A DNA stretch of 64,000 nucleotides, taken from an uncultured Planctomycetaceae bacterium. GTDB lineage: Bacteria; Planctomycetota; Planctomycetia; Planctomycetales; Planctomycetaceae. The position numbers were made by a program, and so were the translations under genes. The notes under the pieces are model-generated. The model worked only from the letters and a program-made list of their open reading frames with translations. It made no database searches and was not told where the DNA came from. Positions 22,614 to 48,409 of this stretch are shown one piece after another (within the stretch, counting starts at the first letter, position 1; the number at the start of each line of letters is the position of its first letter). The DNA lies in assembly GCA_963815195.1 (NCBI GenBank), contig CAWFGE010000022.1, forward strand, positions 128,001 to 192,000. Direction: 5' to 3'.

Positions 22614-24260
22614 TCAATGATTAAACAAAAACTCGCTCGTATTCAGCAGGACCCAGAACACGTCCGCCAACGCTTTTTTGGAATCGTGCTGCGGGCCGCC
22701 GGTTTTGATGTGGTTCGCGAAGCGGCTCTGTTCCTCGGGCGTGGGCTTGCGGGTTAAGGCGGCGAGGAACAATGTTTCCACCTGGTCCTCCGCGGTGAGG
22801 CCCGGGAACTCGGCGACCGCGGCTAAGGTGTTGCTGCCCTCCAGCTTCGTCGCGTCGGCGACCGTTTCGCCGTTCATGAGTGCGAGGGCCTGGAGCACCG
22901 TGGTTTGGCGTTCGATCTGGTTGGGGTTCTCGTCCGAGAATCGTTCGAGGAACTTGCCCTTGTCAGAGTTCTGTTGAAAACTGATGTCATAGGCTTCGCG
23001 GGGATTGAACTCCTGCTGCATGCCCACGGCTTGGGCGAGGTTGTCGAAAATCTGCTCGGCGGAAAGGCCTTTGACCTGCATGCGGGCGAAGTGGTAAGGC
23101 TCGGACGGCGAACCGCCCCGGCTGGCCCTTTGGTAGGCATCGCTCGCGGCGATGGCTTTGATGAAGAACTTCAAATCGAAGTTGTGGGCTTGCATCTCGC
23201 GGGCGAGCTGGTCCAACAGTTCGGGATGCGACGGCGGGTTATTTTCGCTGAAATCATCCACCGGTGAAACGAAGCCGCGCCCGAAGAAATGATCCCACAG
23301 CCGATTGACGGCCATGCGGGCGAAGTAGGGGTTGTCTTGGTCGGTGACCCAGCGGGCCAACGCTTCGCGGGAGCTGTCGCCCAGCCGCATGCGCGGTTTC
23401 GTGCCGTCCAAAAACGAGGGAGAGACGACTTCCTTGGTGTCGGGGATCGTCAGAGTTCGGCGGGTGAAGAACTCCGCGATCGCCCCGGTCGCTCCGCCCC
23501 GGTTGGGCCGGCGTTCGAGGCCCGCAAAGAACGTCGCGAACTGCCAGAATTCCTTCTGCTGCCAATGGTCGAACGGGTGATTGTGGCATTGGGCGCATTC
23601 GAGCCGAACGCCCAAGAACATCCGCGACGTGCTGGCTCCGAGGTTTTCGGGCTTGATTTGTTTGGACTGATAAAAGGCAGTCGGGCTGACCGATTGGCCG
23701 TCAATCGGGGCCGTGAGCAGTTGATAAACCAACCGGTCGTAAGGCGTGTTGTCGCCGAGCTTTTCGCGGAGCCAGGCTTCAAAACCCGGGACTTGGAATC
23801 GGGTTCCAAAGTCGGTCGCGGCTTCGGGCATCAGCACGCTCCGCCAATACCTCGCGAAGTGCGTGACATAGCCCGCATCGTTCAACAGCCGCTGGACGAG
23901 CCGGCGGCGTTTGTCGGGCGAGTCGTCGTTCAGAAACGTCCGCGCCTCGGCGACCGTGGGAATCCGCCCCGCAATGTCCAAGAACGCCCGCCGCAGGAAT
24001 TCCGCATCATCCGCCAAGGGCGCGGGGGCGATGTTCTCTTCGTCCAGGCGAAGGTTGATGGAGTGATCGATCAACGCCGCCACGCGGGCCACCGGATCCT
24101 GAGGCTTCTCCGCGACGGCGGCTTCGTCCGCGGCGAGTGGCGCGGCGGTCAACAAACCCAAAACCAAAAGGAGGGTGGGCACCGCCCACCACCCAGCAAG
24201 AGACACGGGCGGATTGGTGGGCGATGCCCACCCGACGGAGTTTCGAGGGGAAATGATCAC
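22614..24260 (-). CDS. DUF1549/DUF1553 protein
   Basis: DDAEFLRRAFLDIAGRIP, CAQCHNHP, NPYFAR, NPPSHPELLD, SEFLFNH. Confidence 0.93.
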   Translation of the reverse strand: MIISPRNSVGWASPTNPPVSLAGWWAVPTLLLVLGLLTAAPLAADEAAVAEKPQDPVARVAALIDHSINLRLDEENIAPAPLADDAEFLRRAFLDIAGRIPTVAEARTFLNDDSPDKRRRLVQRLLNDAGYVTHFARYWRSVLMPEAATDFGTRFQVPGFEAWLREKLGDNTPYDRLVYQLLTAPIDGQSVSPTAFYQSKQIKPENLGASTSRMFLGVRLECAQCHNHPFDHWQQKEFWQFATFFAGLERRPNRGGATGAIAEFFTRRTLTIPDTKEVVSPSFLDGTKPRMRLGDSSREALARWVTDQDNPYFARMAVNRLWDHFFGRGFVSPVDDFSENNPPSHPELLDQLAREMQAHNFDLKFFIKAIAASDAYQRASRGGSPSEPYHFARMQVKGLSAEQIFDNLAQAVGMQQEFNPREAYDISFQQNSDKGKFLERFSDENPNQIERQTTVLQALALMNGETVADATKLEGSNTLAAVAEFPGLTAEDQVETLFLAALTRKPTPEEQSRFANHIKTGGPQHDSKKALADVFWVLLNTSEFLFNH

Positions 24261-30752: not shown

Positions 30753-33700
30753 TCAGCGGAGGGCCGGGTCCGAAGAGCCGGAAACGGCTTGGCTCGGCTT
30801 GCCGTCCCGATTGGTGTTTTGTGGCCTTTCCAATTCCGGCGCGCGGCCGGCGACCATCGGTCGAACAATTCTTGGAACAGGTCTCGTGTGCCTCGGTCCT
30901 CCTCCGGCCTGTTGCCCCGGGCGGGAGTAAAGACCGTGCGCGCGATGTGCCAACCCAAGGCGCGATAACTTTCGAACTGGGATTCGCTGAACCATTGGTT
31001 GGTTGTCGATTGGTGCGGGAAGAGCGGGTTCGCCGCCCGGTAGTTAAGAACGTCCTGCGGCTCGTCGCCGGTGAGGCTCGGTTTGATATAGATCAAGATC
31101 CCTTCATTGCATTCCGGCCGGAAACGCGACGGCTCGGATTCCGACTCGGCGGACGGCGGTTCTGGACGGCACGCGGCGGCACAATCGACCTCGCCGTAAC
31201 AGATTCGCCCAATCGCCACGTGGCAGGCGCAGGATCCGGAAGCGGCTTCCGGCGTGATTTTTTGCGTGTTGATTTCGATTTGGATTCCAAAATCCACCCG
31301 GACTTTGCGGATCACGCTCGCGAGGTCGGCGAACGTGAAATCGGGATCGGCGCCGGAATCGCAGGCCACGATATACCGGCAGCGGCGGCGGATCAATTCA
31401 TAGAGCCCCAGGTTGTCGAAGTGTCCGCCGTCCGACAGGTACACAAAGTTCTGATCGGCATTGGTGAGCCCCAGCAGCTCGTTTTTGAGGTATTTCAGCA
31501 GGTTCTGTGGTCCGACGTTTTTCCAAGCGCGAAATCTGGGGTTTCCCAGCCACGCCCCCAGCCGCAGGTTGAAGATCGTCAATAGCGCCGAGACGGGGCG
31601 GTAAGAATGATAGCCCATGTTGGGGCTGACCGCGGCACCGGAGATGGAGACGGCCTGCGCGACGGTAATCCCGCCGGCGTAGGCTTGCGTGGGCGCATAG
31701 CCCGTGGTAAGGCTGCCGCAATAAAAGGGAGTGAACGTGAACGACTCGGCCATGCGTTCCCGCCACGCCAGTTCGCCGCCTTCCACGAGATTCAAGGCCG
31801 TCGAAAGAACGGGGATGGGGCCGACGTAGTCGTTCTCATAGGGAATCGCTCCAAGCCGGTTCTGAAGGCATTTGAGCCGCCACCAATTCTGCAGACGGCA
31901 AAACCAGCGAGCATACCACGCGACGTTCCCCAAGCCATTTTGGCGGGATTTCACTTCCTCGATGACCTGCTTAAGCGTTTCGCGCCTTGCGTCCGCCCGT
32001 TGATGGCTGTCGAAGCGCAATTCGGACAAGGGGAAATCATCGCGGGGATCGAACCCCGTGATCGGGTTGGGCGACCGCGGGGTCGAGTGCACGGCATTGG
32101 TCGGGGCGCCGCGATTGAGTTGGCTTCCGTCCGACGCCCAGGCTTTGGGCGCGATGCCCCCAGATAACACCGCGCCAGCCGATTGCGGTAGAGCGCATTC
32201 AAGCTGAAGGTGTTGATGTTGATTCGCCGCGATGCGAAAACCGTCAACGCGCACAAGACGGCGATCGTCAGGCACATCGCCTCAAGCAACCGGAGCTTGG
32301 CGGCGACGGGATCCGCTTCTCGAACCGTCTGGCCGGTCGGCGATGTCGCCTGAAGCTGAACCTGTTCGACGGAAGCCAGATACTCTTCGGGCGTCTCGGA
32401 AAAGCCCCAAACCGGCACGAAATAATCCGTAATGAAGGAGGTGATAATGATCAGCCCGATCAGAAACACGATCGGCACGATGCGAACGGCGTATTTGCCG
32501 AACCGCCCCGTCTGGCCCTGTGAGACGTTTCGGCCCGCCATCATCCCGCTCGCGACGGCGGAGACCCAACCCGCTCCGAGCACGGCTCCGATTCCTGCGA
32601 GTTTCCGCTCCAAAGCCAGAATCAGCCACGGTCCCCAGATGGACAACCCGACGATCGCGAGCCACGCAAAAACATAAATCATGGCGGTGCCCGTCAGGCT
32701 CGCCCACCATTCGCGAATCGCCTCGCTCCAAAGCCTCGAAATAAGTCCGACTTGAATATAGGCGATCAAGATCAATGCCGACAGAAATAAAGGCGGACCG
32801 AGCGTGAGCGCGAGCACCGAACCGTCCCGGCCGACGACGCTGAGGGAATGCAGCAGCGTGAAAACTTGATAAAGCAGCATCCCGCCCACAAATCCCGTCA
32901 AGAGTCCCAAACCGACGCGGGCCAGTTGCAGCATCACGCTCTTGCTCAGATGCATGTCCTCCAAATGTTGAGGCTGATCCAGGCCCACCAGCAAATGAAA
33001 CGTTCCGACCAAGACCGCCATGGCCAAACCGGATAACAGCCTCGCAAACCAGATGGGGTCCAGCGGAATCCCACGTTCGACTTCCGGATAAATCACGCGG
33101 CCGATCAAATCGACCGGGCCCGTTTGCCCTTCGAAACGCGCATGGCACAACCACGCGACCAGCACGCCCAAAATGAGCAACGGAATCATGATGTGACGAT
33201 GAAGATACATCCGCTCGCGGCGAAAGCTCGCCGGCTGTTTCTTTTCCCGGTAACTGCCGCGGATCTGCTGCATCGACCGGTGGATCCAGCGAAAAACCAG
33301 CACCAGCATCACCACGACGAGCGTTTGACCGGCGACCCAAACCACGTTTTCCCAGTTTCCCGAATTTTGATTGTCGGAGGTCATATTGAAGACCATGATC
33401 AACAGCCGCTCCGACATAATCATCCCCAGCAGCAAGGGGATGAGCACCAGCAGGTTCAATAACAAATTGCGAAGATAAATCGAAAACAGCCCCCAAGTGT
33501 CCGCGGAAAAGAACCCGAGCCGCGGCGTGAGATAGTTGCTATACGCGCGAAGATGGTGGATCGGTTCGGGTTCCGCATCGAAGACTTCGCCGGCTTTTAG
33601 GCCGTCCCGCGTGGCGGCGGCTTGGTTGACTCGGCTGGATTGCAACTGCAATTCGACGTTTTCGGTGCTGCCTTCGCGTTTGATCCAGGCTGCAAGCCAA

Positions 33701-34032
33701 CTCCCCACAAATCCGCCGCCGGAAACCGTGGAGAGGTAATCGAAATACTTCAAGAGCCGGTGGTCCGCGAGGCCTTGCAGGATGCCGAGATTGAATGTCG
33801 CGCTGCGGATGCCGCCCCCGGAAAACGCCAAACCCACCACGTCCTCGTCGAGCGCTTCTTGGCGGATTTGTTCGAGGGCTTCGCGCAAGCCGGATTCCGC
33901 GGATTTCGCGGGCCGATTTTCTTCACGGGCTTCGTCCGCGCCGAGTTGATTCGCTCGCCGGCGCTCGCGGATGGCCGCCAGCTCCTCCGCGAGAACCGCC
34001 GAAAAGGGAATCGGGAATTGACCGTCGGCCAC
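30753..34032 (-). CDS. membrane-embedded patatin-like phospholipase (frameshifts ~32140 and ~30845)
   Basis: GLAFSGGGIRSA, YLSTVSGG, LSDGGHFDNLG, with TM helices between the catalytic halves; 3' end approximate. Confidence 0.85.
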
Positions 34033-34155
34033 CGGGCTTGTTCCTCAAGTTGAATCTTGCTGACGATCCTTGATTAAAGAGTCCTATCCTTTCCAACGTA
34101 CCGGCCAAAACGAGGCGCAAGCAACAAAATTCTCCCGCGAGTGGCCTGGGACGCT

Positions 34156-36138
34156 TCACTCCGCGCGGTGCTCTTTTTGTGGCGGCGGGGGATCCTGGTG
34201 GACTTTCAGGTATTCCACAAGGGCCCAGCGGTCCTCGTCGGCCCAATCCGCGCCGTATTCATGCCCGGCGTTCCTGTTGCCTTCGATGGACGTATCAAAT
34301 TCAAAGAGCTTCTTGCCGGTCGCGGCGCCGGCGGTGTCCGGCTTCCAGACAAATCCCACGGATTTGGGATCGAACTCTTGCGATCCGACCAGAAAAGTTT
34401 TCGGACGTTCGGAGGCAGGCAACAGCAAATGATAAAGCGTCGGCACCGATCCGTTGTGCAGATAAGGAGCCGTCGCCCAGACGCCCTCGAGCATGCGGCC
34501 GGGATAAACCGGGCCGCCGGTGACGGTCATCGTGTCGCGCCAGACGACGGGCAGCCGATCCGCTTCCAGGTGGTCCATCAATTCCTGCCGGTCGGCGGAC
34601 ATTTTGGACCTGGCTCGTTGTTGAAGGGCCTCGAGCATGGTGCTGATGGACTCGGCAAATCCGACGGTCGAGCCGTCCGCTTTATACACGGGCCGATCGA
34701 AGTTCGTCGCCACCACCGGATCGGTCTTGACCTCGTCGAGCGAGTAGAGGTTGACGACGATCAGCCCCTGTTTGTTGACGCCCTCGGGCGTATGACACTT
34801 GGCGCAATGCTCTTGATAGAGTGCCTTTCCTCGCTCGACCCGCTTCTCATCAGGAGCGCCAAACACATCGCCGGGCCACTTGGGGGGCGTGATCTTTTGG
34901 ATTTGTTGCTCCATCAGCATTTGATTGACGATGTTGACCGACGTGTCGAACGACTCGGAATCGAAGGTCGCTCCCACGCCGATCGCTTCGCCGATGCTTC
35001 GCTGGATCACCGAGTTGGTATTGGCGTTCCAGTGGAGCCATTCGTATTTGTGGATATTCCAAAGCGGCGGCACACTGACCGGGGCGTTGACCGGCAGCAT
35101 GTTTTTTTCGTTCCAACCGGCGAACAACTCGACGCGGGCGGTGCCGAAGTCGTCGGCCCGCCCGTAGCCCGCTTCCAGCCGATGTCCCGGCTGCGACAGC
35201 CAATTTCGCACTTTGAGAAACGCCAGCCGGTATTTGAGATCCCGCATGTTCCCGTCAAATTCGCCGAGCAGCCTCTCGATCACTTTCTTCCGCTCTTCAA
35301 CCGTTTCGGATTTCAACGGGCTGTTCGGTCCGAAGGACTTATCCGCCAGGTCGGCGGCAAGGGCTTTGACGTCGGCGAGCTTTGCATCCGTGGATTTTTC
35401 GATCCCCTCCGATCGGATGGCACCAATCTCGTGGCGCAACTGGCCGAGCCGGGCTTTGAGATGATCTGCGATTCTGCGTCCGACGTCGCCGTCTTTTTCC
35501 AGGTCTTTGAGCTTCGCAAATTTGCCGATCAACTCTCCGGCGATTTTGCTTTCCTTGGTCAGCCGCTTCAGGAACGCCCAGAACTCTTCCGGATCTTTGA
35601 GCGTCGCGTTGACCGATTCGCCGACCGCGTCGCCCAGCCGATCGACATAAAACAGCCCCGACCCGCCCTCGACGCGGACGACTTTTCCCTGGTAGTGCAA
35701 GTCCGAAGTATGGCATGCGGCACACGTAAAACCGAACATCTCGATTTCCCGGTCGCCGGACTTGATTGTGTTGGTCACGATGCCGACGGGAAACCCTTCG
35801 GGATTGCGGGGCGATTTCTTGCCGGGCACCAGGCCGAATCGCTCGAGGTTTTCGAGAAACGGCCGGCCCGTTTCGCTGTCATTGAGCGCCCGCACGACGG
35901 CCATGGGAAAAAAACCGCTGCCTTGCTCCGAGTAGTGCACGAGGTCCGCATCGTATCCCGCCTGCGTATTGATTCCCATCGGAACCGCCGCGACCGATGG
36001 ACCCCCAGGCGTCTCACCACCTGTTCCATTTGACGGGGAGTTCGATTTCTCGCCGGGCGGCGTCTTCTTTTCGCTCGTGCACCCAAGACACATTCCCACG
36101 CCTAAGACCACACACCACGCGACGCGAGGAAGGGACAT
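34156..36138 (-). CDS. di-heme c-type cytochrome lipoprotein, RoxA/MauG/peroxidase-like
   Basis: lipobox-like CLGC, CAACH and CAKCH heme motifs, GVWATAPYLHNGSVPTL, GNRNAGH. Confidence 0.85.
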   Translation of the reverse strand: MSLPRVAWCVVLGVGMCLGCTSEKKTPPGEKSNSPSNGTGGETPGGPSVAAVPMGINTQAGYDADLVHYSEQGSGFFPMAVVRALNDSETGRPFLENLERFGLVPGKKSPRNPEGFPVGIVTNTIKSGDREIEMFGFTCAACHTSDLHYQGKVVRVEGGSGLFYVDRLGDAVGESVNATLKDPEEFWAFLKRLTKESKIAGELIGKFAKLKDLEKDGDVGRRIADHLKARLGQLRHEIGAIRSEGIEKSTDAKLADVKALAADLADKSFGPNSPLKSETVEERKKVIERLLGEFDGNMRDLKYRLAFLKVRNWLSQPGHRLEAGYGRADDFGTARVELFAGWNEKNMLPVNAPVSVPPLWNIHKYEWLHWNANTNSVIQRSIGEAIGVGATFDSESFDTSVNIVNQMLMEQQIQKITPPKWPGDVFGAPDEKRVERGKALYQEHCAKCHTPEGVNKQGLIVVNLYSLDEVKTDPVVATNFDRPVYKADGSTVGFAESISTMLEALQQRARSKMSADRQELMDHLEADRLPVVWRDTMTVTGGPVYPGRMLEGVWATAPYLHNGSVPTLYHLLLPASERPKTFLVGSQEFDPKSVGFVWKPDTAGAATGKKLFEFDTSIEGNRNAGHEYGADWADEDRWALVEYLKVHQDPPPPQKEHRAE

Positions 36139-36354
36139 CGTTTTCTCCAGCTTGAGGGAAGGCCATTTGAATGGTTGGCACGAGACGGGCACAGGATTCT
36201 GCGAAGTGTTCACCATCCTAAGCGAGTGAACCGAAAAATCCCAGGCAGAATGTCATACTGTTCAAATGCGGGAAGAGCGTCTCTGTTCGTGGCCTGCCGT
36301 TTCGCCTATTCTCTAGACGGAAGCGAGTTGACCCGAACGCGACCTCGAGCCGAA

Positions 36355-37242
36355 ATGGTGGGCCAAATGCACGATGACTTCAAATCGGGCACATTGAAAG
36401 CGAATGGAATCGAGTTTGGTTTTCTGGAAGCCGGGGAAGGCCCGCTCGTCTTGCTGCTGCATGGGTTCCCCGATAATGCTTACACATTCCGTCATCAACT
36501 GCCTGTCCTGGCGGATGCGGGTTATCGGGCGGTCGCGCCGTTTCTGAGGGGCTATGCCCCCACGACGGTGGCGGCGGGTTCTTATCAAACCGCGGTGCTG
36601 TGCCGGGATGTCTTGGCGCTGATCGATGCGCTGGGCTACGACGAGGCCGCGGTGTTCGGCCACGACTGGGGGGCCGTGTTGGCGATGGGGGCCGCGGAAA
36701 TCGCGCCGGAAAAAATCCATCGGCTCGCCGCGGCGTCCGTCCCACACGTGGCACCGCTGTTTGCCTCGTTGGTGAACAACGCCGACCAGCAAAGGCGAAG
36801 CTGGTACATTTATTTCTTCCAACTTCCCATCGCGGAGACAGCGGTTTCCGCGGACGACTTTGCATTTCTCGATCGCCTCTGGCAGGACTGGTCGCCGGGT
36901 TGGAACTATCCCGCGGAGGTGATGGCGAACGTGAAAGACACGCTGGGAAATCCCGGCGTCTTAGGGGCCGCGCTGTCGTACTACCGTTGCCTGTTCGATT
37001 CTTCCGGCTTCGACCCGGCGGTTGAGGAGATTCAAGCGACGCTGTTCAGCACGCCGATTCAAGTTCCGACGCTCTACTTTCACGGCGAAAAGGACGGCTG
37101 CATCGGCGTGGAATTGGTGGAGGAAATGGATCCCTTCTTCGCTCACGGATTGGAGAAGGTCATCCTTCCCGCGGGGCATTTCGTCCAACAGGAGGCCCCC
37201 GACGAAGTGAACCGGCATTTGCTGGCGTTTCTGAAATCGTGA
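36355..37242 (+). CDS. alpha/beta-fold hydrolase with epoxide hydrolase signature
   Basis: HGFP, GHDWG (Asp nucleophile), SWYIYFFQ and LSYYR tyrosines, GHFVQQE. Confidence 0.82.
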   Translation: MVGQMHDDFKSGTLKANGIEFGFLEAGEGPLVLLLHGFPDNAYTFRHQLPVLADAGYRAVAPFLRGYAPTTVAAGSYQTAVLCRDVLALIDALGYDEAAVFGHDWGAVLAMGAAEIAPEKIHRLAAASVPHVAPLFASLVNNADQQRRSWYIYFFQLPIAETAVSADDFAFLDRLWQDWSPGWNYPAEVMANVKDTLGNPGVLGAALSYYRCLFDSSGFDPAVEEIQATLFSTPIQVPTLYFHGEKDGCIGVELVEEMDPFFAHGLEKVILPAGHFVQQEAPDEVNRHLLAFLKS

Positions 37243-37257
37243 CGCCATCCCGGAGGA

Positions 37258-40200
37258 TCAATCGGCTTCGTCGAGCAGACGCCTGGCATCGACAAGATCG
37301 GGCGTTGCAAAGCCTTCGCAAAACCAGCCGAAAACCTCCGCCAACAAAGCCTGGCCTTCCGCGGATCGGCCTTGCGTTTTCCGCAGCCTTGCCAGCGACA
37401 TGGCCGCGCGCAATTCCCACGACTTGGCCCGCTGCACCTGGCCGATTTCCAGCGACTTTTCCAAGCAGGCTTCCACAGCGGGCAGATCGGCGGATTGCTC
37501 CAGGAGCAGTTCGCCTTTCCGCCGGAAGAGTTCCGCTTCGTAGTAGCGATCCTGGTGGAGCGCGGCGATCTCCAGTGAATGGTCGAGCGTTCCGAGGGCT
37601 TCGTCCAACCGGCCGGTCCGCTGCTGGGCTTCGGCGAGAAAACTGTAATAGTAAGGCAGCGACAGCGCCGCTCCCGTGGCTTTGATCGTTTCAAGCCCTT
37701 CTTGCACCAGGTCCAGCACTTCGTCCACGCGGTCCAAAAGCAACAGCGCGGACGAGCGGTACAGCCGGCTCGTCGCCGACCAGAACGCGAAGCCGTGCTT
37801 GTCCGCGAGCCGTTGCTCGGCCTCGGCATATTCCAGCGTCTTTTCGCCCAGCCGGGCATATTGATGCACCCAGGCGCTAAAGTGCAGGGAATAGCATTGG
37901 CTGAAAGGGTGCTTCAAATGGTGGGCCAGGTCGATGGCGGATTCGATTCGCTCGAGCGCCTGGTCGGGATACCCCAGATGCCAATTCGCGAGAGCCCAAT
38001 AACTCTGGAGCGTCACGCCCGAGTTCTGGCCGCTGCGGTGACAGTGCATCCGGCAGCGGTCTTCGTCGTAGAGTGCGAAGCCGTCCTCGCAGTGCTTCCG
38101 AGCGGCCTCGAAGTCGCCAAGGTAATACAGAGAATTGGCCGGGACGTGATGGGCTTCCATCATCATGCCGGGATCGCCGAGCAGTTCGGCGAGCGACATG
38201 ATTTCCTCGGAGAGCTTGAGGCTGAGCACCAACTCGTCGCGGACGAGCCGCCACGCCCAAATCCCGAACAGCACCACGAACGAATTCCACTTGTCGCCCA
38301 CGCGTTCGCAAAGTTCGCGGGCCCGGTCGTAAACCGGCCCCACCTCCGGGGCGGCATACCCGCGGGTCGAGACGAGCGCGGCGCCCAAGGGAACTTTGAG
38401 AACCAATTCCAACTCATCGCGATGCGGCGATTCCTCCAATCGCTCCACAAGGGCCAGACCGCGATGGACGCAACTGATCGTCTCGGCGTGAGCCGACTTT
38501 TCCGCCGCCAACGTCGCGGCCTGACACCAATACTTGACACCTTGTTCCAACTCGCCGGCTTCCGCGAAATGCCAGGCCAAGAGCGCCGGATCGGTCCCGG
38601 GCATCTCCTCGAGCACCTTGGCGACGCGGAGGTGAAATTGCCGGCGTTTGTCCTTTAGCAGCGTTTGGTAAGCGGCATCCTGGATCAGCGCGTGCTTGAA
38701 GATGTAGACGCACCTGGGCGGCCGGCCTTTCTGATAGATCAATTCCGCGAGGATCAGTTTGTCGAGTTCGATCTGCAGGTCCGCCTCGTCGAGTTCGGTG
38801 ACCGCGCGAATCAGCTCATGGCCGAATTCCCTCCCCACCACGGACGCCAATTGGACGATGTCCATGTCGCTCGCCATGCGGTCCAACCGGGCCAACAGCA
38901 GGTCCTGCAGCGTCGCGGGAATTTCCTTGACGGGAAACGTCGCGGACATCTCCGTTTCGCCGTCGATTTCCCGGAGCGTGCCGGTCTGCATGACCATTGT
39001 GGTAAACTCTTCCACAAACAAAGGCACGCCGTCGGTGCGGTCGATCACCGATTGAACAATCTGGGCGGGAATCTGATTCAAGCCCGATTTGCGCTGCATC
39101 ATTTCCGCGATTTGGCGTTTCGTCAGCCGGTTGAGCGCGACCTGTGTCTGATGCGCGAGGCTGCTCCAGGGAGTTTGGAATTCCGGGCGAAACGTCAGAA
39201 TCGTGAGCACGCTGTCGTTGAGTCCCTCCGCGACATGGTACTCGAGAAACTCGAGCGTCGAGGGATCGACCCAGTGGAGATCCTCCACGATGAACAGAAC
39301 CGGCCGGTCCCGCGACATCTCGCGGAGCCAATCCTGCAAGACTTCGATGGTCCGCTGCCGCCTGCGATCCGGACTCATTTCCAAAGGCGGGCACCGGCCG
39401 TCGAGCGGCAACGACAACAGCGACGCCAAGAGCGCGAACTCCTCATCGCCGTGGAGCGCAATGTCTTCGAGGTGCCCAGCCAGACGGTCCAAGCGGTCGG
39501 CGGGGGCATCCTCGGGCTGGAAATTGAGCAACCGCTCGAAATACTCCCGCGCCGCAAACAGGCTGCTGTTCGCGTGCAAAGGCGAACAGAACCATTCGAC
39601 GATCTGTTGTGCCGGCTCTTCCGGCTCTTCCGGCTCTTGATCGGCGAGCACGTAGTCTTTGATCGTGTAAACCAGCCGCGATTTTCCCAGCCCGGCCTCC
39701 CCGATCAAAAGCACGATCTGGCCCATGCCTTCCACGGCCTGATCCCAGCGGTCCACGAGCAGGCCGACTTCGCGGTCGCGTCCCGTGAGCGGCGTCAACT
39801 CGCCCAGATTCGCCGCCCGGTCGATCCGGCTGAGAATCGGCCGCTCGCCGGTGACCTCGAAGAATTCCAGTTTTTGCGAGACGCCCTTGAAGCGAAACTG
39901 GCCGAGGCTTTCAAAGTCGAAATAACCCGCGGTCAGACGTTTTGTCGCTTCGCTGACGATGACCATTCCCGGTTCCGCGACCTGATCCAGCCGGGTGACG
40001 ATGCTCCGCGGTTCGCCGACGATCGAGAGCGAATCGTGACCGATGCTTCCGCGCCCGGCTTCTCCAATCACAACGTGCCCCGTATGCAGCCCGATCCAGG
40101 GCGCGAGGTCGAGCTTTTGTCTTTGGAGATCGGCATTCAGCATTTTGACGCGCTCTTGCAGCTTGAGCGCCGCCTGCACGCTCCGCCGGGTCGAATCCTC

Positions 40201-41588
40201 ATGCGCCAGCGGATACCCGAAGCAGACCAAAACGCCTTCATTGCCGGATTGAACCAGTGTGGCGTCGAACTCTTCGATGATTTCGTCGCAGAGCGACTGA
40301 TACTCCCGCAGGATGCGATGCTGGTCCTGGGGATCGACTTCCTCCAGAAATTCCGACGTCTCGAAAAGATCGCAGACGCAGAACATCATCGTGACCTGCC
40401 GGCGTTCGGCCTCCCGCGCCCGCCGAATCGAGGAGGCCGTTCGATCGCTTTTGGAGGATGACTCCTTCAAAAAGTCCTCGGAGGGCGGGGGCTCTCGCTC
40501 GAACGACGAAGATCGGTCGATTTGAGAGACCGTCGGATCCAGGAGGACGGAGGGTCCCGCCTGGTCGCCTGAATCAAAGGGCGGTTGCAAAATGACGGGA
40601 GACGTGTGTGCCTTGAGGACCCGGCGGAGATCATCGGCGAAGTCGCTCGCCGTCGTGTCGGCGCATTCAACGATTTCGACATGGCTTTGAGGCAGATCGC
40701 CTCGACCGCGGCCGGTACATGCGGGGCGATCTGGCGGGGCGGCTGCGGCTCGTCTTCGCAGACCTGCCGCAAGATCTCCGCCGCGGTCGATCCGTGGAAC
40801 GGGACCCGGCCGCAGAGCATGCGATAAAGCACGACCGCCAGCGAATAGATGTCCGTCCGGCCGTCGATACGGTGCCCTCGGCCCGCGGCTTGTTCCGGCG
40901 ACATATAGGTCACCGTGCCCGCGACCAGTCCGACTTCCGCGCCGGGATCGCCGGCGTCCGTATCGCTGACCGCCAATCCAAAATCCACAAGCACCGGCTT
41001 TTGATCGCTCGTCAACAGAATGTTTCCCGGTTTGAGATCCCGGTGCACAATCCGGCGAGCATGCGCGTGGGCGAGCGCATCGGCGACTTCGGCGACAATC
41101 GCGACGGCCTCTTGCCAGGTCGGCCGGTATTGCTTGAGCCATCGTTCCAGATCCGTGCCGGCGATGTAATCGGAGACGATGTAGCATTGCCCGTCGTCCA
41201 CGCCCAAATCGAACACGGTCACAATGGCCGGATGCCTCAACTGCGCCAGATCGCGCGCCTCTTTCAGGAACCGGTCCACTTCCTCGGGGGAGTGGAGCAC
41301 GTGACGATGCGGGGCCTTGATCGCCACATCACGATTGAGCTGCCTGTCGTACGCGCGGTAAACCGTGCCGAACCCTCCCCGGCCGAGCACGTCTTGAATC
41401 TCGAAGCGGCCGATCGTTTTCGGCATGGCCGCGGCGGTCTCCCGATCCGCCGGGACAACCGGTTTGATCGTGTCCGCAAACGCGTCCGATCGATGCGAGT
41501 TTGTATCGGGATGCGAACCGTCAGGCTTCGCCGGGTTGGGGGCGGCATTGTCCGGCGTGCCGACCGGTTCTTTGTCTTGAGAACTCAT
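37258..41588 (-). CDS. Ser/Thr kinase - cyclase-like - P-loop ATPase - TPR fusion (frameshift ~40670)
   Basis: GRGGFG, HRDLKPGN, DFG, YMSPE; ERRQVT...FGYP; GEAGLGKS, EDLHW; C-terminal WELRAA. Confidence 0.88.
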
Positions 41589-41728
41589 CAAACTCGTTGC
41601 TCGCGGTTCTGAACCTCTCCTGAAAAACGCCCCGTCATCATACCGCGAAGCAAACGCTTCCCACAACATGAGAAACGGCCTGGGCGACGCCGTTGACGGG
41701 AAGATAGATCCGTTAGGACTTTGCGGGG

Positions 41729-42409
41729 TTAGCGTCCTGGGCGGATTTGGGGATGCAGCGCCCCGCCCTCCACAACGTGTTCGATGCCGAGTGCCGCGAG
41801 CATCGCGAGACCGCCGACCCACGCGAGCGTTGTTTCGCCGCTCATTCCGAGAAACGAGCCGCCGGCTTTGCCCAACCGGTTGAAATACAGCCAGCAAAAG
41901 CCGCCGAGCGTTTCATAAAACGTGATCAGCCCCGTCTTCGCCTGCCAGAAGTAAAACCCCCAAGGCTTTTGCTGCATGATGTGCAGCTCGTAGCTGTGCT
42001 GAAGTTGCTCGCCGACGAACAGAATCGCCACCGCGGCGAGGATCCCCGCGATCTGGAATTGGAGGGTCCCGTCGCCCGGCTTGGTGCCAAAACGGTCGAA
42101 GATCCACACGAACAGCATCCACACGATAATTTCACTGAGCGTGATCAGCAGCAGATTCGCAAACCGCTTCCAGGCCGGAATCTGGGCGGCCGTTACGCCG
42201 ATGCCTGAGCCGAAATTTGTTTTGGCCCACCAGACGACGGTCAGGCGTTCGATCATAAAACCGGTCCACAAAGCGATTGTGGAGAACACGTATTTGTTGA
42301 GGAAGTCCGTCTGGTCGAAAAAGTACAGCCAGCCCATCAAGGCGAACCATTCGCCGAAGGTCGCGATAAAGAAGGGGAGTTTCTTCTTTCGAAAATCGTC
42401 GAACGTCAT
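41729..42409 (-). CDS. 6-TM hypothetical membrane protein
   Basis: six hydrophobic segments in three similar pairs; divergent from the monooxygenase genes. Confidence 0.7.
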   Translation of the reverse strand: MTFDDFRKKKLPFFIATFGEWFALMGWLYFFDQTDFLNKYVFSTIALWTGFMIERLTVVWWAKTNFGSGIGVTAAQIPAWKRFANLLLITLSEIIVWMLFVWIFDRFGTKPGDGTLQFQIAGILAAVAILFVGEQLQHSYELHIMQQKPWGFYFWQAKTGLITFYETLGGFCWLYFNRLGKAGGSFLGMSGETTLAWVGGLAMLAALGIEHVVEGGALHPQIRPGR

Positions 42410-42504
42410 ATGGTTCGCTTTCCAAGGTGGAATGTCGGCGGATGAGCCTCTTGAAAGGTTCGTCCCCATCGAGTGGTGGATGCGTCACTCTACCCATGAA
42501 CACA

Positions 42505-42534
42505 TCGACAAGTCAACGAGATAGCCCGTATAAT
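42505..42534 (+). promoter_or_regulatory. putative sigma70 promoter of the monooxygenase operon
   Basis: TCGACA-18 nt-TATAAT. Confidence 0.5.
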
Positions 42535-42607
42535 CCTCACCAGCCCGGGAGACCCATTTCGGGGTTGAAGGAACGCACACGATCAGAACCCGATGATTGG
42601 AATTCCC

Positions 42608-43642
42608 ATGACGCCGCGTCCACCCTTTGAAAGCCATCGGCGGTTTACGTGGTTCAAGCCGGAAAAGGCCTTTCCCACCGAATACGAGTCGCTCACGGTC
42701 GGGCAGCAATCCCGCCCGGAGGAATGGATGCACGTCGATTGGCCCGTCCGGTTCGACGACGGCCGCGCTCCCTTTGTGGAAGACTCCACCGCCCTCCGGT
42801 CCGTGGATTGGAAAGGCTTTCGCGACCCGGCGGGATTATTGCAACGAACTCACGTGGCGACGACCAATCGTCAGGAACAGAGCTTGGCGTCGTTCCTTGA
42901 AGAGTCCCACCGCCAAAACCTGTTGAGCCGGCTCAATCCCGCGTGGCGCGACAGCGTGATCGGGAAATATTACGCGGCGTGGCCGTTCGTGGAATACGGC
43001 CAGTTTCTTGCCTTGAGCTATGCGGTGCGGGAAGCCCCGGCGGCGGCTTTGACGTTTGGCCTGGCGTACCAGATCTCCGATAAACTCCGGCACGGCCAGG
43101 ACATCGTGCATTACCTTGCCCTCTTGGAGAACGCAGTGCCCGGGTTCTCGGATGAAAGAGCCCGCGACGCCTGGATGAACGATGCCGCCTTCGTGCCCCT
43201 CCGCGAGCATCTGGAGCGGATTATCCAGACTCGCGACTGGGGCGAGATCATGATTGCCATCCACCTGGTCCTCGAACCGCTCGCGGGCAAGCTTTTGAAA
43301 TCGGAACTGGTGGCGAGGCATGCTGCGGTTCACGGCGATCCGATCTCGCCGGTCATCCTGGCCAACGCGGGAGCCGACGTGCAAAGGCATCAGCAATTCG
43401 CGGTTCAGTTCGCAAAGTTTCTGACCGCGGATCCCCAATTCGGCGAAAGCAACCGCCACGTAATTCGCGGCTGGATGGAGAAGTGGGTTCCAGAAGGCGA
43501 ACAGGCCGCCGCCGCGCTCAAGCCGATTTTTGAGTTGGAGGGTGTATCGCTCGAACGGTTCGAGGACTGCTACGACCGGATTCGCGCCGGGCATCGACGG
43601 ATCATCGCCGGCGCGACCGGATCACCGAAAGGATCCCCATGA
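42608..43642 (+). CDS. soluble diiron monooxygenase beta subunit (alkene MO AmoA/EtnA-like)
   Basis: FTWF...PTEYE.LTVGQQS...HVDWPVRFDDGR...FRDP...YAAWPFVEYG; alternative start 42593. Confidence 0.9.
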   Translation: MTPRPPFESHRRFTWFKPEKAFPTEYESLTVGQQSRPEEWMHVDWPVRFDDGRAPFVEDSTALRSVDWKGFRDPAGLLQRTHVATTNRQEQSLASFLEESHRQNLLSRLNPAWRDSVIGKYYAAWPFVEYGQFLALSYAVREAPAAALTFGLAYQISDKLRHGQDIVHYLALLENAVPGFSDERARDAWMNDAAFVPLREHLERIIQTRDWGEIMIAIHLVLEPLAGKLLKSELVARHAAVHGDPISPVILANAGADVQRHQQFAVQFAKFLTADPQFGESNRHVIRGWMEKWVPEGEQAAAALKPIFELEGVSLERFEDCYDRIRAGHRRIIAGATGSPKGSP

Positions 43643-43941
43643 GCGACTTCGAGGTTTTGAAACGAGATCGAATCGGCGTTTCGCTGATGAACAGCGCGGA
43701 AACGGAAGCGGCCGTCGCGTGGCTGCGCGACCAGTGTCCCGACGCCAGCGTCTCGTTCCGCGATTGCTATTTCAAAATCGAGCGGGATCACGAACTTCGA
43801 TTCGATTTGTCGGCGATCTCGAATTATCTGGGAAGCGAACTCGACGTGGAGACGTTCCTCATCAACCTGAGTTCGTATTACGGGCGCATCGTGGTCGAAG
43901 AGAACTCGATCCGCGTTGTGTCGGAGATTTCTTCAATTTGA
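43639..43941 (+). CDS. monooxygenase coupling protein (MmoB/DmpM family; AmoB/EtnB-like)
   Basis: GVSLMNS.ET, DCYFKIERD, FLINLSSYYGRIVV; ATGA overlap with the beta gene. Confidence 0.9.
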   Translation: MSDFEVLKRDRIGVSLMNSAETEAAVAWLRDQCPDASVSFRDCYFKIERDHELRFDLSAISNYLGSELDVETFLINLSSYYGRIVVEENSIRVVSEISSI

Positions 43942-43976
43942 CGATGGGTCGAACAATCGATTCTCCGAGGAGCAAA

Positions 43977-45484
43977 ATGAAGCCGAGGAAAAACCCCCTC
44001 CTGTTCGATAAGATCGCGTCCTACGACTGGCAGTTCACGACGTCCGAGCGGCAGCCTCCTTTTAAGACGAAGTACGCGATTCCGCACAAAGGCCCCGATG
44101 CGTTTCGGCTTTTGATTCGGGACTATATGCGCATGGAAGCGCAAAAGGACGATCGAACCTACGGGTTTCTGGACGGGGCCTTGCGGATGCGGATGGCCGA
44201 ACAGGTGGAACCGCGGTTCAACGAATGCCTCAAAATCACCTTGCCCGACACGACCAACGCCGAGTATCAGGCCGTGCTGCGCCTGCGGCGGGATTATCGC
44301 GTCTTTTGAAAACCAGGAGCTGCGGCAAGGCTATTACCACCAGATGCTGGACGAAATCCGGCATACGCAGATCCAGATGAAGCTGAGGGAATACTACGTG
44401 AAGCACGCTCCCGACCCGGCGGGTTGGGACATCAATCAGAAGGCGCTCTACCAGCACCCGGCCGGTCTGGTCTCGCTCGGGGAAATGTACCATTTCCATA
44501 CGGGCGACCCGATCGACTGCATTATCGACCTCAACGTGATCGTCGAAACGGCTTTCACGAACGTGCTGCTGGTCGCCGTCCCTCAAGTCGCGGTGGCGAA
44601 CGGCGATCATGCGCTGGCCACGTCGTTCCTCTCCATTCAGTCCGACGAATCGCGGCACATGGCAAACGGTTACGGGTCCCTGTTGTGCGTGCTCCGCGAC
44701 GAACAGAACATCCCGCTGGTCAACGACGCCATCGAACGGCATTTCTGGCGGTGCTCACAAATCGCTCGACGCCATTACCGGTTGGCAGTGCGAGTACGGG
44801 GCACGCGTCAGGCCTTGGGCCTACAAAGACCAATGGAAAGAGTGGATCGTCGACGATTTCGTCGGAAGTTACATCGCCCGGCTGGAACCCTTCGGCGTCC
44901 AGACCCCGCGGTACTTAGGTCGCGCCTTGGACGACGTCCAATGGATGCACCACACGATCGCCCAGTTCCTGGCATCGATCTGGATGCTGAATTGCTGGCG
45001 CACGGACTGCTTGGACGCCGCGGATTACGATTGGTTCGAAAAACACTATCCCGGTTGGACAAATTATTATGGCAAGTTCTGGGATGGGCATCGGCAGATG
45101 ACGGATCCGGCGGATGGGATGATCATGTTGAAGCAACTGGGCTCGGTGCCCGCCTTTTGCCAGGTTTGCAACGTGCCTTGCGTTGTGCCGCGCCCGGATA
45201 TCAACGAAGGCCGGATCACCGAAATCGACGGAAAGCGGTACGCGGTGTGTTGCGAGCCGTGCGAGTGGATCCTGCGGAAATGGCCGGCGGTCTACACGGG
45301 CCGCCGTCAATGGACCGAGCGATACCACGGCTGGGATCTGGCCGACGTCATTCTTGATTTGGGCTACATTCGACCGGATGGAAAGACTCTGATCGGCCAG
45401 CCGTCGCTGGATCTCGACCGCCTGTGGACGATTGAGGACATCCGCAACTTGAATTACGAAGTCCGCAATCCCTTGGCGAAATAA
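43977..45484 (+). CDS. soluble diiron monooxygenase alpha subunit (AmoC/EtnC-like; frameshifts ~44280 and ~44750)
   Basis: NAEYQA, DEIRH, ETAFT and DESRH diiron-site motifs; C-terminal GWDLADVILDLGYIRPDGKTLIGQP; RBS GAGGAG. Confidence 0.92.
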
Positions 45485-45866: not shown

Positions 45867-46217
45867 ATGAAAAAGGGTCTTGCAATCGCAGCGTTGGGTT
45901 TGGCGGCCGCGTTTTTTGCCTTTGGGCCTAGCACCGCCCAGGCCGGGCATCACGGACATTGCCGGAGCGGGTATGGCTACGGCGGATCCCGCGGCGGACT
46001 TGGGCTGGGGCTTGGGCTGGGAAACTTGCTCGGCGGCCGGGGCTATGGATACGGCAACTACGGCCGGTCTTATTCCGGTTACAACCGCAATCCCTATTAC
46101 TACGGCAATCGCGGCGTGCCCTACGGCAATTACGGTTACGGCCGAGGCTACGGCTACGGCGGCTACGGCAACGGGGTCCAAGTCCGAACCCCGGGCTTCA
46201 GCTTAGGCCTCTGGTAA
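45867..46217 (+). CDS. small secreted Gly/Tyr-rich protein
   Basis: signal peptide ending AQA, GYG repeats, RBS AAGGAG. Confidence 0.85.
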   Translation: MKKGLAIAALGLAAAFFAFGPSTAQAGHHGHCRSGYGYGGSRGGLGLGLGLGNLLGGRGYGYGNYGRSYSGYNRNPYYYGNRGVPYGNYGYGRGYGYGGYGNGVQVRTPGFSLGLW

Positions 46218-46330: not shown

Positions 46331-48409
46331 TCAGGAGTCTTTTTTGAACTCCTCGCCGACGCGGCACAAACAGAATCTTGGTTTTGTGAACCATGCAAGA
46401 TACGTTTTGGCGTGGGCCTCACTCCGCTTCGTCGGCTTCGTCCATGCCGAGTTGCGCATCTTGCGGTACAGATTCGACCGGTGCAGCCCCAACAGTTCGG
46501 CGGCCTGGCTTATGTTGCGTTGCGCGCGGTGGATCGCCGCGCGGATGTAGGTTTGCTGGAAATCCCGCGTGGCGTCCTTCAGGGTCTGGTCGCCAGCGGG
46601 CATCTGGTGCTCGGCGCCTTGGTCGGGGCTGAGAATGAATGCCAAATCGTCGGCTTCCACGCGCTCGCCCGGACTTAAAAACGCGACCCGCTCCATCAGG
46701 TTGCGCAGTTCGCGGACATTCCCCGGCCAGGCGTGTCCCTGCAACCGGCGGCGGGCCTCGGCGGAAAGCTGCAACGACGGGCGGCGGGCCTGAACGCAAA
46801 ATTGCTTGAGGAAAAACTCGGCCAGCAGCAGAATATCTTCCGGCCGGTCCCGGAGCGGCGGAAGAACCTGCGTGACGACGCTCAATCGATAGTACAAATC
46901 CTCGCGGAACTTCTTGTGGCGCACGGCCTCGGCGAGGTTGGTGTTCGTGGCCGCAACGATTCGCACATCGATCGGGATCGGCTGGGAGCCGCCGACGCGG
47001 GTGATGACTTTTTGCTCCAGCACGCGGAGCAGCTTCGCCTGCCCGCCCAGGCTCATGTCGCCGATCTCGTCCAGAAACAGCGTGCCGGCCTCGGCCAGTT
47101 CGAACTTGCCCTGCCGGGTTTCGCGGGCATCGGTGAAGGAGCCTTTTTCGTGCCCGAACAGCTCGCTTTCCAAGAGCGTCTCCGCGAGTGCGGCACAGTT
47201 GACGGCGACGAAAGGATTCTTTCCGCGCGGCCCCTGATAGTGCAGCGCCTGGGCGACGACTTCTTTCCCCGTCCCGCTTTCGCCCAAAATCAAGACCGGC
47301 AGATCCGTGAGCGCCAGGCGTTCGACGGTGCTGCGGAGAGCGACAATCACCGGGCTTTGGCCAATGAGCTTCACGCCTTCGCGGATTTGCTCGGTGAGCT
47401 GCTCGCGGGTGCGGATGAGCTGCTCCCACTCCCGGGTGTTGCGGATGGCGGTCGCCGCGTGCGTGCCGAGCTGCTTGAGGCTTTCGACATCGTCCTCGGA
47501 AAAGTTGCCGCGATTTTTGTTGATGCACTCGAACGCCCCGATCAGTTCGCCCTCGGGATCGTGCACGGGAACGCAGAGAAGGTTACGGGTTTTGTAGCCG
47601 CTCTGCTTGTCCACGTCGGAATGGAAACGGGGATCCTTGTAGGCGTCGTCGACCTTGATCGTTTCGTTCTTTGCGACGACTTCGCCCACGATGCCCGCGC
47701 CTTCCGGGATGCGGAGCGTCTCGCCTTCCACGCCGAGCGCGGGGCAGGCGACCAGTTCGCGGTGTTCGCGGTCCCAGACGAAAATGCTCGAGCGGTCGCA
47801 ATCCAGGAGCCGGGTGGCTTCGGTGGCGATCACCTCCAGAAGCCGCCCCGATTTTCGCTCCTTGGCGAACGACGAGGTGATCTGCAGCGTGCTCCGCAGC
47901 CGCTCGGCACGCCGGGCCGTGAGTTCGCGGTTCTCCATGATGCGAACCGCCAAACCAAACGACCGCCCCACGACCACCGCCATCGGCAGCCAGTCCGCCG
48001 TCAGCGACCGCCCGCACAACACAAACACATCGCGGACCCCGTCGCTGAATGCCAAAGGCACGCCGACGATTCCCCAGCCGGCGGGAGATTCCAAAGTCTG
48101 GAATCCCGCCGCTTGCTGCTTGACGACTTGCTCGAAAAACCCGGCCGGCAGCTCGTCCAAGGGAAATCGCCCGCATTGTTCGCGGATCGACCATTCCGCG
48201 GCGTTTTCGAGCACGCCGGCCCATTGCACCGCAAATTCGGTGGCCAGTTCCGGGAGCATTTCGTGAAGGAAGGTCTTGGAATCCTCGAGTTCGAGCGCCG
48301 CTCCCAACAGCCGTTCCGACAAATGAATCGCCGCCCCGCCCGTTTCCGATTGCGAAAACCAAGGCAGATCCCGCCAGGTCATCCAGGTGATATTGGACTC
48401 GGAAGTCAT
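46331..48409 (-). CDS. GAF-domain sigma54-dependent (Fis-family) activator
   Basis: GAF (SGYKTRNLLCVP), GESGTGKE, GSFTDA, LFLDEIG, WPGNVREL, HTH; true stop probably 46419 after a late frameshift. Confidence 0.92.
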   Translation of the reverse strand: MTSESNITWMTWRDLPWFSQSETGGAAIHLSERLLGAALELEDSKTFLHEMLPELATEFAVQWAGVLENAAEWSIREQCGRFPLDELPAGFFEQVVKQQAAGFQTLESPAGWGIVGVPLAFSDGVRDVFVLCGRSLTADWLPMAVVVGRSFGLAVRIMENRELTARRAERLRSTLQITSSFAKERKSGRLLEVIATEATRLLDCDRSSIFVWDREHRELVACPALGVEGETLRIPEGAGIVGEVVAKNETIKVDDAYKDPRFHSDVDKQSGYKTRNLLCVPVHDPEGELIGAFECINKNRGNFSEDDVESLKQLGTHAATAIRNTREWEQLIRTREQLTEQIREGVKLIGQSPVIVALRSTVERLALTDLPVLILGESGTGKEVVAQALHYQGPRGKNPFVAVNCAALAETLLESELFGHEKGSFTDARETRQGKFELAEAGTLFLDEIGDMSLGGQAKLLRVLEQKVITRVGGSQPIPIDVRIVAATNTNLAEAVRHKKFREDLYYRLSVVTQVLPPLRDRPEDILLLAEFFLKQFCVQARRPSLQLSAEARRRLQGHAWPGNVRELRNLMERVAFLSPGERVEADDLAFILSPDQGAEHQMPAGDQTLKDATRDFQQTYIRAAIHRAQRNISQAAELLGLHRSNLYRKMRNSAWTKPTKRSEAHAKTYLAWFTKPRFCLCRVGEEFKKDS

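Follow-up and report, generated by a model that had tools for sequence, protein, structure and literature searches.

A putative group 4 soluble diiron monooxygenase operon without a detectable cognate reductase in a planctomycete

In the scheme of a 2025 review (PMC11825192), group 4 of the soluble diiron monooxygenases (SDIMOs) is encoded by four genes in the order beta subunit, coupling protein, alpha subunit and reductase, and its subgroup C comprises the propene monooxygenases. The review takes an alpha-subunit identity of at least 50% as the cut-off for group membership, counts 22 group 4 sequences, which are exclusive to Actinomycetota bar one from a gammaproteobacterium, and states that the group has no crystal structure. 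Here we describe an operon of this type in a 64,000-nucleotide stretch of DNA (the window; positions 128,001 to 192,000 of contig CAWFGE010000022.1) from an uncultured Planctomycetaceae bacterium. The window sits within a 403 kb contig (C22) of a genome assembly of 8.87 Mb in 25 contigs that is 94.6% complete (G000), which we compared with an independently assembled genome of the same genus (G001) and with two further congeners (G002 and G003). Taken together, our analysis makes it likely that the operon encodes a group-4-type hydroxylase and its coupling protein, that both are intact in vivo, and that they come without a cognate reductase.

The operon consists of the genes for a hydroxylase beta subunit, a coupling protein and a hydroxylase alpha subunit, the last of which is read from three successive frames (Table 1). 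Open reading frames (ORFs) and Pfam matches confirmed the beta-coupling-alpha order that an earlier note on this DNA had proposed. The note placed the start of the operon at 42608, which is a real ATG but an internal one, the beta ORF beginning at 42593. The genes are closely packed, with the start of the coupling protein overlapping the beta stop by 4 nt and the alpha start lying 2 nt past the coupling protein. The beta subunit is 38-54% identical to beta subunits from group-4-like operons and scored 156.8 bits against NF045802, under the 700-bit cut-off of that model. Within alpha, PF02332 was matched along its profile positions 1-88 by the N-terminal piece (1.3e-08) and along positions 110-228 by the middle piece (4.4e-22); the whole 8.87 Mb of G000 holds three matches to this family, all of them within the operon. 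NCBIfam gave zero family matches for the alpha pieces or for the intact alpha of G001, the library apparently having no alpha model that reaches them. The motifs NAEY, DEIRH, ETAFT and DESRH, which the earlier note had given for intact diiron ligands in the stitched alpha, and LYQHPAGLVS and GWDLADVILDLGYIRPDGKTLIGQP, which it had related to group 4, are all contained in the translations. All six diiron ligands (E, ExxH, E, ExxH) are present, and their Glu and His columns are invariant across an alignment of 12 group-4-like alpha sequences, in which a C-terminal Cys cluster is also conserved with the alphas of group 4 propene monooxygenases.

Table 1 Features discussed in the text, in positions of the window.
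Feature	Position	Strand	Details
PSCyt2+PSD1 gene	22614-24260		within the window
Di-haem cytochrome c peroxidase-family protein (distantly RoxA-like)	34156-36216	-	686 aa; NF040606 401 bits (cut-off 150)
Predicted alpha/beta-fold epoxide hydrolase	36175-37242	+	355 aa; PF00561; 5.3 kb upstream of beta
Ser/Thr kinase, adenylate/guanylate cyclase, AAA_16 signalling protein	37258-41897	-	Pkinase, Guanylate_cyc, AAA_16; between hydrolase and membrane protein
Six-helix membrane protein of a rare unnamed family	41729-42469	-	246 aa; divergent from beta
Candidate sigma-70-like promoter TCGACA-18-TATAAT	42505-42534	+	58 nt 5' of beta start; 11/12 consensus
SDIMO hydroxylase beta subunit	42593-43642	+	349 aa; PF02332 5.5e-56; alternative start 42608
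MmoB/DmpM-type coupling (effector) protein	43639-43941	+	100 aa; PF02406 3.3e-20
SDIMO hydroxylase alpha subunit	43944-45484	+	~513 codons in three frames: 43944-44276, 44278-44748, 44753-45484

Identities of the alpha subunit to reference SDIMOs were computed with the intact G001 orthologue as query, which is 93% identical to the window alpha over 494 columns of the tree alignment. We obtained 62% for PmoC of Mycobacterium M156, 61.1% for the alpha of M. chubuense NBB4 pMYCCH.01, 61% for the alkene monooxygenase alpha of PE-TB08W and 54-55% for EtnC of Nocardioides JS614 and of NBB4 pMYCCH.02; the PH-06 type followed at 43.6% and the Prm/Thm types at 36-38%. Identity to group 4 references is thus above the cut-off for membership. 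A search of 5.8 billion protein clusters with alpha returned 606 proteins at E <= 1e-10, the nearest metagenome protein being 77% identical, and upon clustering at 50% identity the alpha fell with one representative, P0053, at 61%. An alpha-subunit tree, which the earlier note had suggested as a check, was built with IQ-TREE (LG+G4, quick search, SH-aLRT support) from 55 rows. These include toluene, phenol and Xamo outgroups, the Prm/Thm and PH-06 types and P0128, the representative of the MmoX cluster as identified via the PDB (P0125, P0127 and P0131 were rejected for this role), and leave out AmoC of R. ruber B-276 and ZmoC of Solimonas (group 7). In this tree, the alphas of the window and of G001 nest in a 32-row clade (support 99) together with EtnC of JS614 and NBB4, PmoC of M156, the pMYCCH.01 alpha and PE-TB08W, and a node with support 96 unites them with the PE-TB08W alkene monooxygenase.

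Judging from identity and tree position, the alpha can be classed as a group 4, subgroup-C-like protein in the scheme of the review. The group 4 assignment made in the earlier note therefore stands, and a position outside group 4, which the note had named as its possible refutation, did not materialise. Its description of the enzyme as divergent does not hold, as the predicted protein is placed in the propene-monooxygenase part of the group and does not appear especially divergent. The first three genes of the group 4 scheme are present in order; the four-gene order that includes a reductase is not. The earlier note had also passed over three features that are taken up below, namely the lack of a cognate reductase, the lack of EtnE and a linked epoxide hydrolase.

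In the assembly, alpha is interrupted by two frame breaks. In a DNA alignment with the intact G001 gene, the window alpha has exactly two extra bases, located at ~44276/44277 (site 1, one extra base at ~44277) and at ~44750-44752 (site 2, GT for C at 44751-44752). The three alpha pieces abut at residues 105/106 and 262/264 of the intact G001 protein, and nothing else is therefore missing from alpha. The G001 gene is an intact 506-aa ORF (519-aa open frame) in a syntenic position with the same gene order, and its product is 89% identical over the C-terminal window piece that was searched. At site 2, two short-read contigs from different studies, X1 (504 nt) and X2 (360 nt), have C instead of G at 44751 and no base for 44752, so that the sequence becomes TGG CGC GCT CAC and the frame is restored; elsewhere they do not differ from the window. 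Site 2 is thus an artefact, or at least not fixed.

Breaks of this kind are frequent in G000. Compared with the long open frames of 138 kb of G001, G000 showed 24 frame-switch events (~20 of them distinct), or ~1 per 5 kb, with frame-breaking indels of 1-2 bases in regions on contigs C1, C8, C12, C13, C16, C17, C18, C22 and C23. Several PSD1 domains of G000 are also split across frames. The 20 affected genes carry 31 indels with a length that is not a multiple of three, and GCGC lies at most 10 nt from 16 of these 31 by eye count, compared with a background of 7.9% per 21-nt window (p ~2e-10). The three indels at this locus of the window (~40664, 44277 and 44751-2) all have GCGC within this distance. 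The frequency of the breaks together with the GCGC enrichment indicates a technical cause; they resemble consensus errors made systematically at a motif, and a basecalling problem at a methylated site may be behind the GCGC-linked cases. Very probably site 1 is an artefact as well. Most likely, alpha is intact in the living organism, and both frameshifts stem from consensus errors in an assembly that is prone to indels. Because spurious breaks are this frequent in the compared regions of G000, its apparent pseudogenes probably reflect consensus errors too and are not to be trusted at face value.

An expansion of PSD1/PSCyt (DUF1553/DUF1549) genes is a mark of Planctomycetota. G000 contains 72 PSD1 matches as opposed to none in 14 control genomes, and one PSCyt2+PSD1 gene is found in the window itself. 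This supports a planctomycete host (soil), in agreement with the host named in the earlier note. Positions 30922-45484 of the window, a 14.6 kb upstream block that includes the operon, line up collinearly with a G001 contig of 305 kb, and the collinearity stops exactly at the alpha stop codon. As an independent assembly shows the same arrangement, the joining of operon and host genes does not stem from a chimeric assembly. The alpha was found in two of 41 related genomes, G000 and G001, the latter being the only one among the three other congeners.

With this information at hand, three other explanations for the broken alpha and its unexpected host can be weighed. Alpha might be a true recent pseudogene, with real frameshifts in an operon that decays after the loss of its reductase. 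Both insertions stand in the assembly, neither lies within a homopolymer and no reductase was found. Two further points weigh against an intact gene: none of the four public runs compared with the region spans 44268-44475, which leaves site 1 unverified by reads, and the sample from which X1 derives may be the one behind the genome. However, site 2 is in frame in contigs of different studies, the breaks throughout G000 point to a technical origin, and the congener has an intact gene although it likewise lacks a reductase. Between G000 and G001, the three pieces of alpha have ratios of non-synonymous to synonymous substitution rates (dN/dS) of 0.05, 0.008 and 0.07 (dS 0.8-1.0), which shows long-term constraint across the gene while no reductase was present; beta and the coupling protein gave 0.16 and 0.11. 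We therefore regard a pseudogene, and with it the real frameshifts that the earlier note had listed as a possible refutation, as improbable. Since the two shifts have the same direction and highly conserved flanks, they could also be read as programmed +1 ribosomal frameshifts. Yet neither site shows a slippery or stop-codon context, the congener and all listed homologues read one continuous frame, and the second shift is absent from the short-read contigs, so that this explanation is hardly credible. Finally, the region could be mis-binned or chimeric DNA of another organism, e.g. an actinobacterium or a proteobacterium, since the closest named relatives of the enzyme come from other phyla and the GC content of the operon is 57-58% compared with ~60% for the whole window. 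A chimeric assembly, also raised in the earlier note, is nevertheless very unlikely given the synteny of the 14.6 kb block in an independent congener and the PSD1/PSCyt2 genes and nqr operon on the same 403 kb contig.

Neither in G000 nor in G001 is alpha followed by a reductase gene. We searched G000 by tblastn with three group 4 reductases and two EtnE sequences and by six-frame hidden Markov model (HMM) searches. An EtnD/AmoD/MmoC-type reductase was not detectable in G000-G003, where only NqrF or NqrF-like frames were matched; in G001-G003 the best EtnD-like matches are NqrF-like frames and none is better. In G000, the sole full-length match to EtnD (C22:215297-216385, E 1e-33) was rejected as a homologue, being the NqrF of an nqr operon. 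NqrF is the only Fer2-FAD-NAD protein of G000, and Fer2 and NAD_binding_1 co-occur in this one ORF only. The other Fer2 or NAD-binding ORFs, which were likewise rejected as reductase candidates, are small subunits of molybdo-hydroxylases, a PyrK-like protein and a lone 187-aa ferredoxin. The nqr operon (Na+-translocating NADH:quinone reductase) itself appears complete and lies at G000:C22:207001-226000 (locus L024), 42 kb from the SDIMO operon. EtnE of JS614 and NBB4 had no tblastn match at E <= 1e-3 in any of the 25 G000 contigs, and the genome thus offers no sign of the EtnE on which coenzyme M (CoM)-dependent alkene assimilation was judged. Neither a CoA-transferase nor an NAD(P)/FAD oxidoreductase of the NBB4 type lies beside the operon of the window. 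By comparison, alpha is directly followed by a reductase in 50 of 58 group-4-like loci from genomes of other species, and EtnE lies within 7 kb in 21 of the 58. Two points weigh against a true absence. A reductase or EtnE could hide in the unassembled part of G000, and frameshift errors could mask either gene from ORF-based checks, though tblastn and the six-frame searches were employed as well.

The nearest readable relatives of the operon, which are the metagenome loci L112 and L113 (alpha 69-70% identical to that of G001) and L111 (73%), are also without a full reductase. In L112 and L113, alpha is followed by a 100-aa ORF for a ferredoxin only, which shares 50-51% identity with the N-terminal domain of the reductase of NBB4, and then by a gene of the di-haem cytochrome c peroxidase family; L111 has no reductase within 1.3 kb downstream of alpha. 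The reductase-less state is older than the split of G000 and G001. As dN/dS between these two reductase-less genomes is low, the enzyme presumably runs on a non-cognate donor.

Upstream of the operon, the window encodes a potential partner that would act on an epoxide. Epoxide hydrolases of the alpha/beta fold are recognised by an HGXP oxyanion motif, a Sm-X-Asp-X-Sm nucleophile elbow and a C-terminal catalytic His. In the protein encoded at 36175-37242, HGFP, GHDWG and a C-terminal GHF are visible. In the PDB it is closest to 5ng7 (E 1.2e-47, over nearly the whole length), and of the 38 top matches listed, 37 are named as epoxide hydrolases and one (row 25) as a bare hydrolase; NCBIfam matches (haloalkane dehalogenase and others) were all below their cut-offs. 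By motifs and closest structures, the protein can be assigned to the alpha/beta-fold epoxide hydrolases. A counterpart at 78% identity is present in G001 only, with matches of 33-35% in G002 and partial ones of 32-35% in G003.

The operon lies in the planctomycete chromosome and was probably acquired by horizontal transfer. From these data we propose a route from alkene via epoxide to diol, as a tentative scheme to which we give slightly less than even weight. The carboxylate-bridged diiron centre of alpha would be reduced by two electrons and, with the coupling protein bound, the diiron site would activate O2 and insert one oxygen atom into the C=C bond of a small or medium alkene to give an epoxide. 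As no cognate reductase was found beside the operon or detected in G000-G003, the electrons must have a non-cognate source. The epoxide would be hydrolysed to the diol by the hydrolase encoded upstream rather than enter the CoM route. Short-alkene epoxidation as the physiological activity is suggested by membership in the clade. Several points count against this route. The substrate cannot be given by sequence alone, and according to the review (PMC11825192) the subgroups of group 4 track substrate only where the substrate is known. Between the hydrolase gene and the operon stand a 4.6 kb signalling gene and a divergent gene, the co-occurrence of the hydrolase with the SDIMO rests on four related genomes, and a homologous hydrolase was found near none of 80 group-4-like loci of other genomes.

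The enzyme could instead be intact and under selection without being an alkene epoxidase, and hydroxylate an alkane, an ether or a lipid- or isoprenoid-derived compound, or serve a non-catabolic role, with an unusual electron donor. In line with this, the context is unlike that of every canonical alkene cluster, lacking reductase, EtnE and CoM-pathway genes, and the neighbours are a patatin-like phospholipase, the cytochrome and an orphan membrane protein; moreover, the ferredoxin-only ORF after alpha in L112 and L113 stands with the same cytochrome family. On the other hand, alpha nests among enzymes whose characterised members all oxidise C2-C4 alkenes, and the co-occurring epoxide hydrolase fits an epoxide product. 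We consider this reading unlikely. Somewhat less likely still appears a scenario for the lineage as a whole, in which the window, its congener and L111-L114 would have dispensed with a dedicated NADH reductase and use another electron route. L112 and L113 would then have kept the ferredoxin domain only and the planctomycetes nothing, and the co-inherited six-helix membrane protein would be one candidate for the electron route. The epoxide would be hydrolysed, and the function would be detoxification or the modification of lipids or isoprenoids and not growth on short alkenes. The missing reductase and EtnE together with the hydrolase-linked context are the part that deserves experiment.

The membrane protein is present in G000 and G001 only, four congeners having been searched, and is 91.6% identical between the two. 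Ten homologues were found among the 5.8 billion clusters, none with a Pfam domain. Residues E40, E74, E113, E154, H158, E161, H163, E186, E230 and H231 are invariant, and the stretches GEQxQHxYELH and EHVV hold invariant Glu and His. Its structural model shows six long helices (pLDDT 80). A Foldseek comparison with the PDB gave nothing at E <= 0.001, the wide VIA-align search reached a best Z of 7.2, which is inside the noise of helical bundles, and Atlas gave only sub-threshold unnamed matches. A likeness to styrene oxide isomerase (Z 5.2, root mean square deviation 8.7) was not accepted as evidence.

The cytochrome gene of the window is the best G000 homologue (35%, E 2e-94) of the cytochrome gene of L112 (3475-3861 of its metagenome contig) and L113 (1568-3541), and lies 6.4-8.4 kb upstream of the operon. 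G002, a genome without the SDIMO, has a 65-71% homologue of it in three pieces in adjacent frames. The gene is adjoined by a patatin-like phospholipase gene (31951-34032, minus strand, 693 aa) within the block that is syntenic with G001. In the window, the loss of one base at ~40664 interrupts the kinase-cyclase gene, which is intact in G001 as a 1464-aa ORF (1485-aa open frame).

As to expression of the operon, the sigma-70-like promoter candidate is no more than a consensus match, as the region holds three such sites, compared with 1.8 +/- 1.2 in shuffles. Downstream, a 380-nt AT-richer spacer separates alpha from the gene of a small secreted-looking Gly/Tyr-rich protein (45867-46217, plus strand, 116 aa) with GYGYG repeats and without a family match. 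A regulator with GAF, sigma-54 activator and HTH_8 domains is encoded at 46331-48409 on the minus strand, convergent with alpha and 850 nt downstream of it. Sigma-54 control of the operon was considered and rejected: this activator is not syntenic in G001, and a TGGCAC-N5-TTGC motif was not seen 5' of beta when 42470-42592 was read by eye. Homologous activators (37% identity) are located upstream of beta in two distant loci, L060 and L081.

The locus adds Planctomycetota to the phyla of group 4, which makes it a new phylum relative to the review (PMC11825192). The titles and opening lines of abstracts that we searched contained no soluble diiron monooxygenase of planctomycetes, and a literature search found no paper that joins a group 4 SDIMO with an epoxide hydrolase. 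Beyond the mainly actinobacterial setting described in the earlier note, data from metagenome-assembled genomes (MAGs) show the group to be wider already. Group-4-like operons are found in MAGs of Gammaproteobacteria (66%), of Myxococcota (with Kofleriaceae and Polyangiaceae at 65%), of Chloroflexota and of Dormibacterota, and in many Actinomycetota, the whole set being MAGs or isolates; a more distant set is labelled Deltaproteobacteria, Binatia, Proteobacteria or Enterobacteriaceae. With operons in several phyla, the range of group 4 is much wider than published. Both reductase and EtnE are present in L025, L028, L029, L041 and L062 (Gammaproteobacteria MAGs), L040 (Chloroflexota) and L043 (Dormibacterota); among the Kofleriaceae/Polyangiaceae MAG loci, L026 and L076 have a reductase only and L027 has neither gene. 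That strong purifying selection has preserved a hydroxylase and coupling protein in two species in which no cognate reductase is recognisable raises the question of how the enzyme is reduced. The locus also offers a predicted stereoselective epoxidase that would be paired with a hydrolase instead of the CoM pathway.

Among the known systems, MmoX of soluble methane monooxygenase (1fyz, 6d7k, 7m8q) shares the fold family and the ligand motifs and provides the best PDB matches of the window alpha (its two larger pieces scoring E 2e-35 and 6e-26), with the toluene and phenol enzymes far behind. In the tree, its cluster representative P0128 falls outside the group 4 clade, and the exact position of its long branch is uncertain. 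According to the review, the operon of soluble methane monooxygenase runs alpha, beta, coupling protein, gamma, accessory protein and reductase (PMC11825192); in the window, ORFs and Pfam matches revealed no apparent gamma-subunit gene between or beside the three genes. The ethene/vinyl chloride monooxygenase EtnABCD (JS614 pNOCA01, NBB4 pMYCCH.02) has its first three genes in the same order as the window, but forms a sister subclade that is not nearest to it, and its clusters carry EtnD immediately downstream and EtnE immediately upstream, whereas the window has neither. The contigs of L111, L112 and L113 resemble the window in the order beta, coupling protein, alpha and in the missing full reductase, and L112 and L113 differ from it in the ferredoxin ORF and cytochrome directly after alpha, neither of which is found directly downstream in the window. 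The propene monooxygenases of group 4 (PmoABCD of M156, the pMYCCH.01 homologue and AmoABCD of PE-TB08W, whose host bears the labels Halieaceae/Alteromonadaceae) have the order beta, coupling protein, alpha in common with the window, and the subunits are of similar size, with 349, 100 and ~506 aa in the window and 344, 106 and 501 aa in NBB4. They differ in the 340-aa 2Fe-2S/FAD/NAD reductase that follows alpha on NBB4 pMYCCH.01 and has no counterpart in the window. Moreover, the genes of the window belong to a planctomycete and are chromosomal rather than plasmid-borne.

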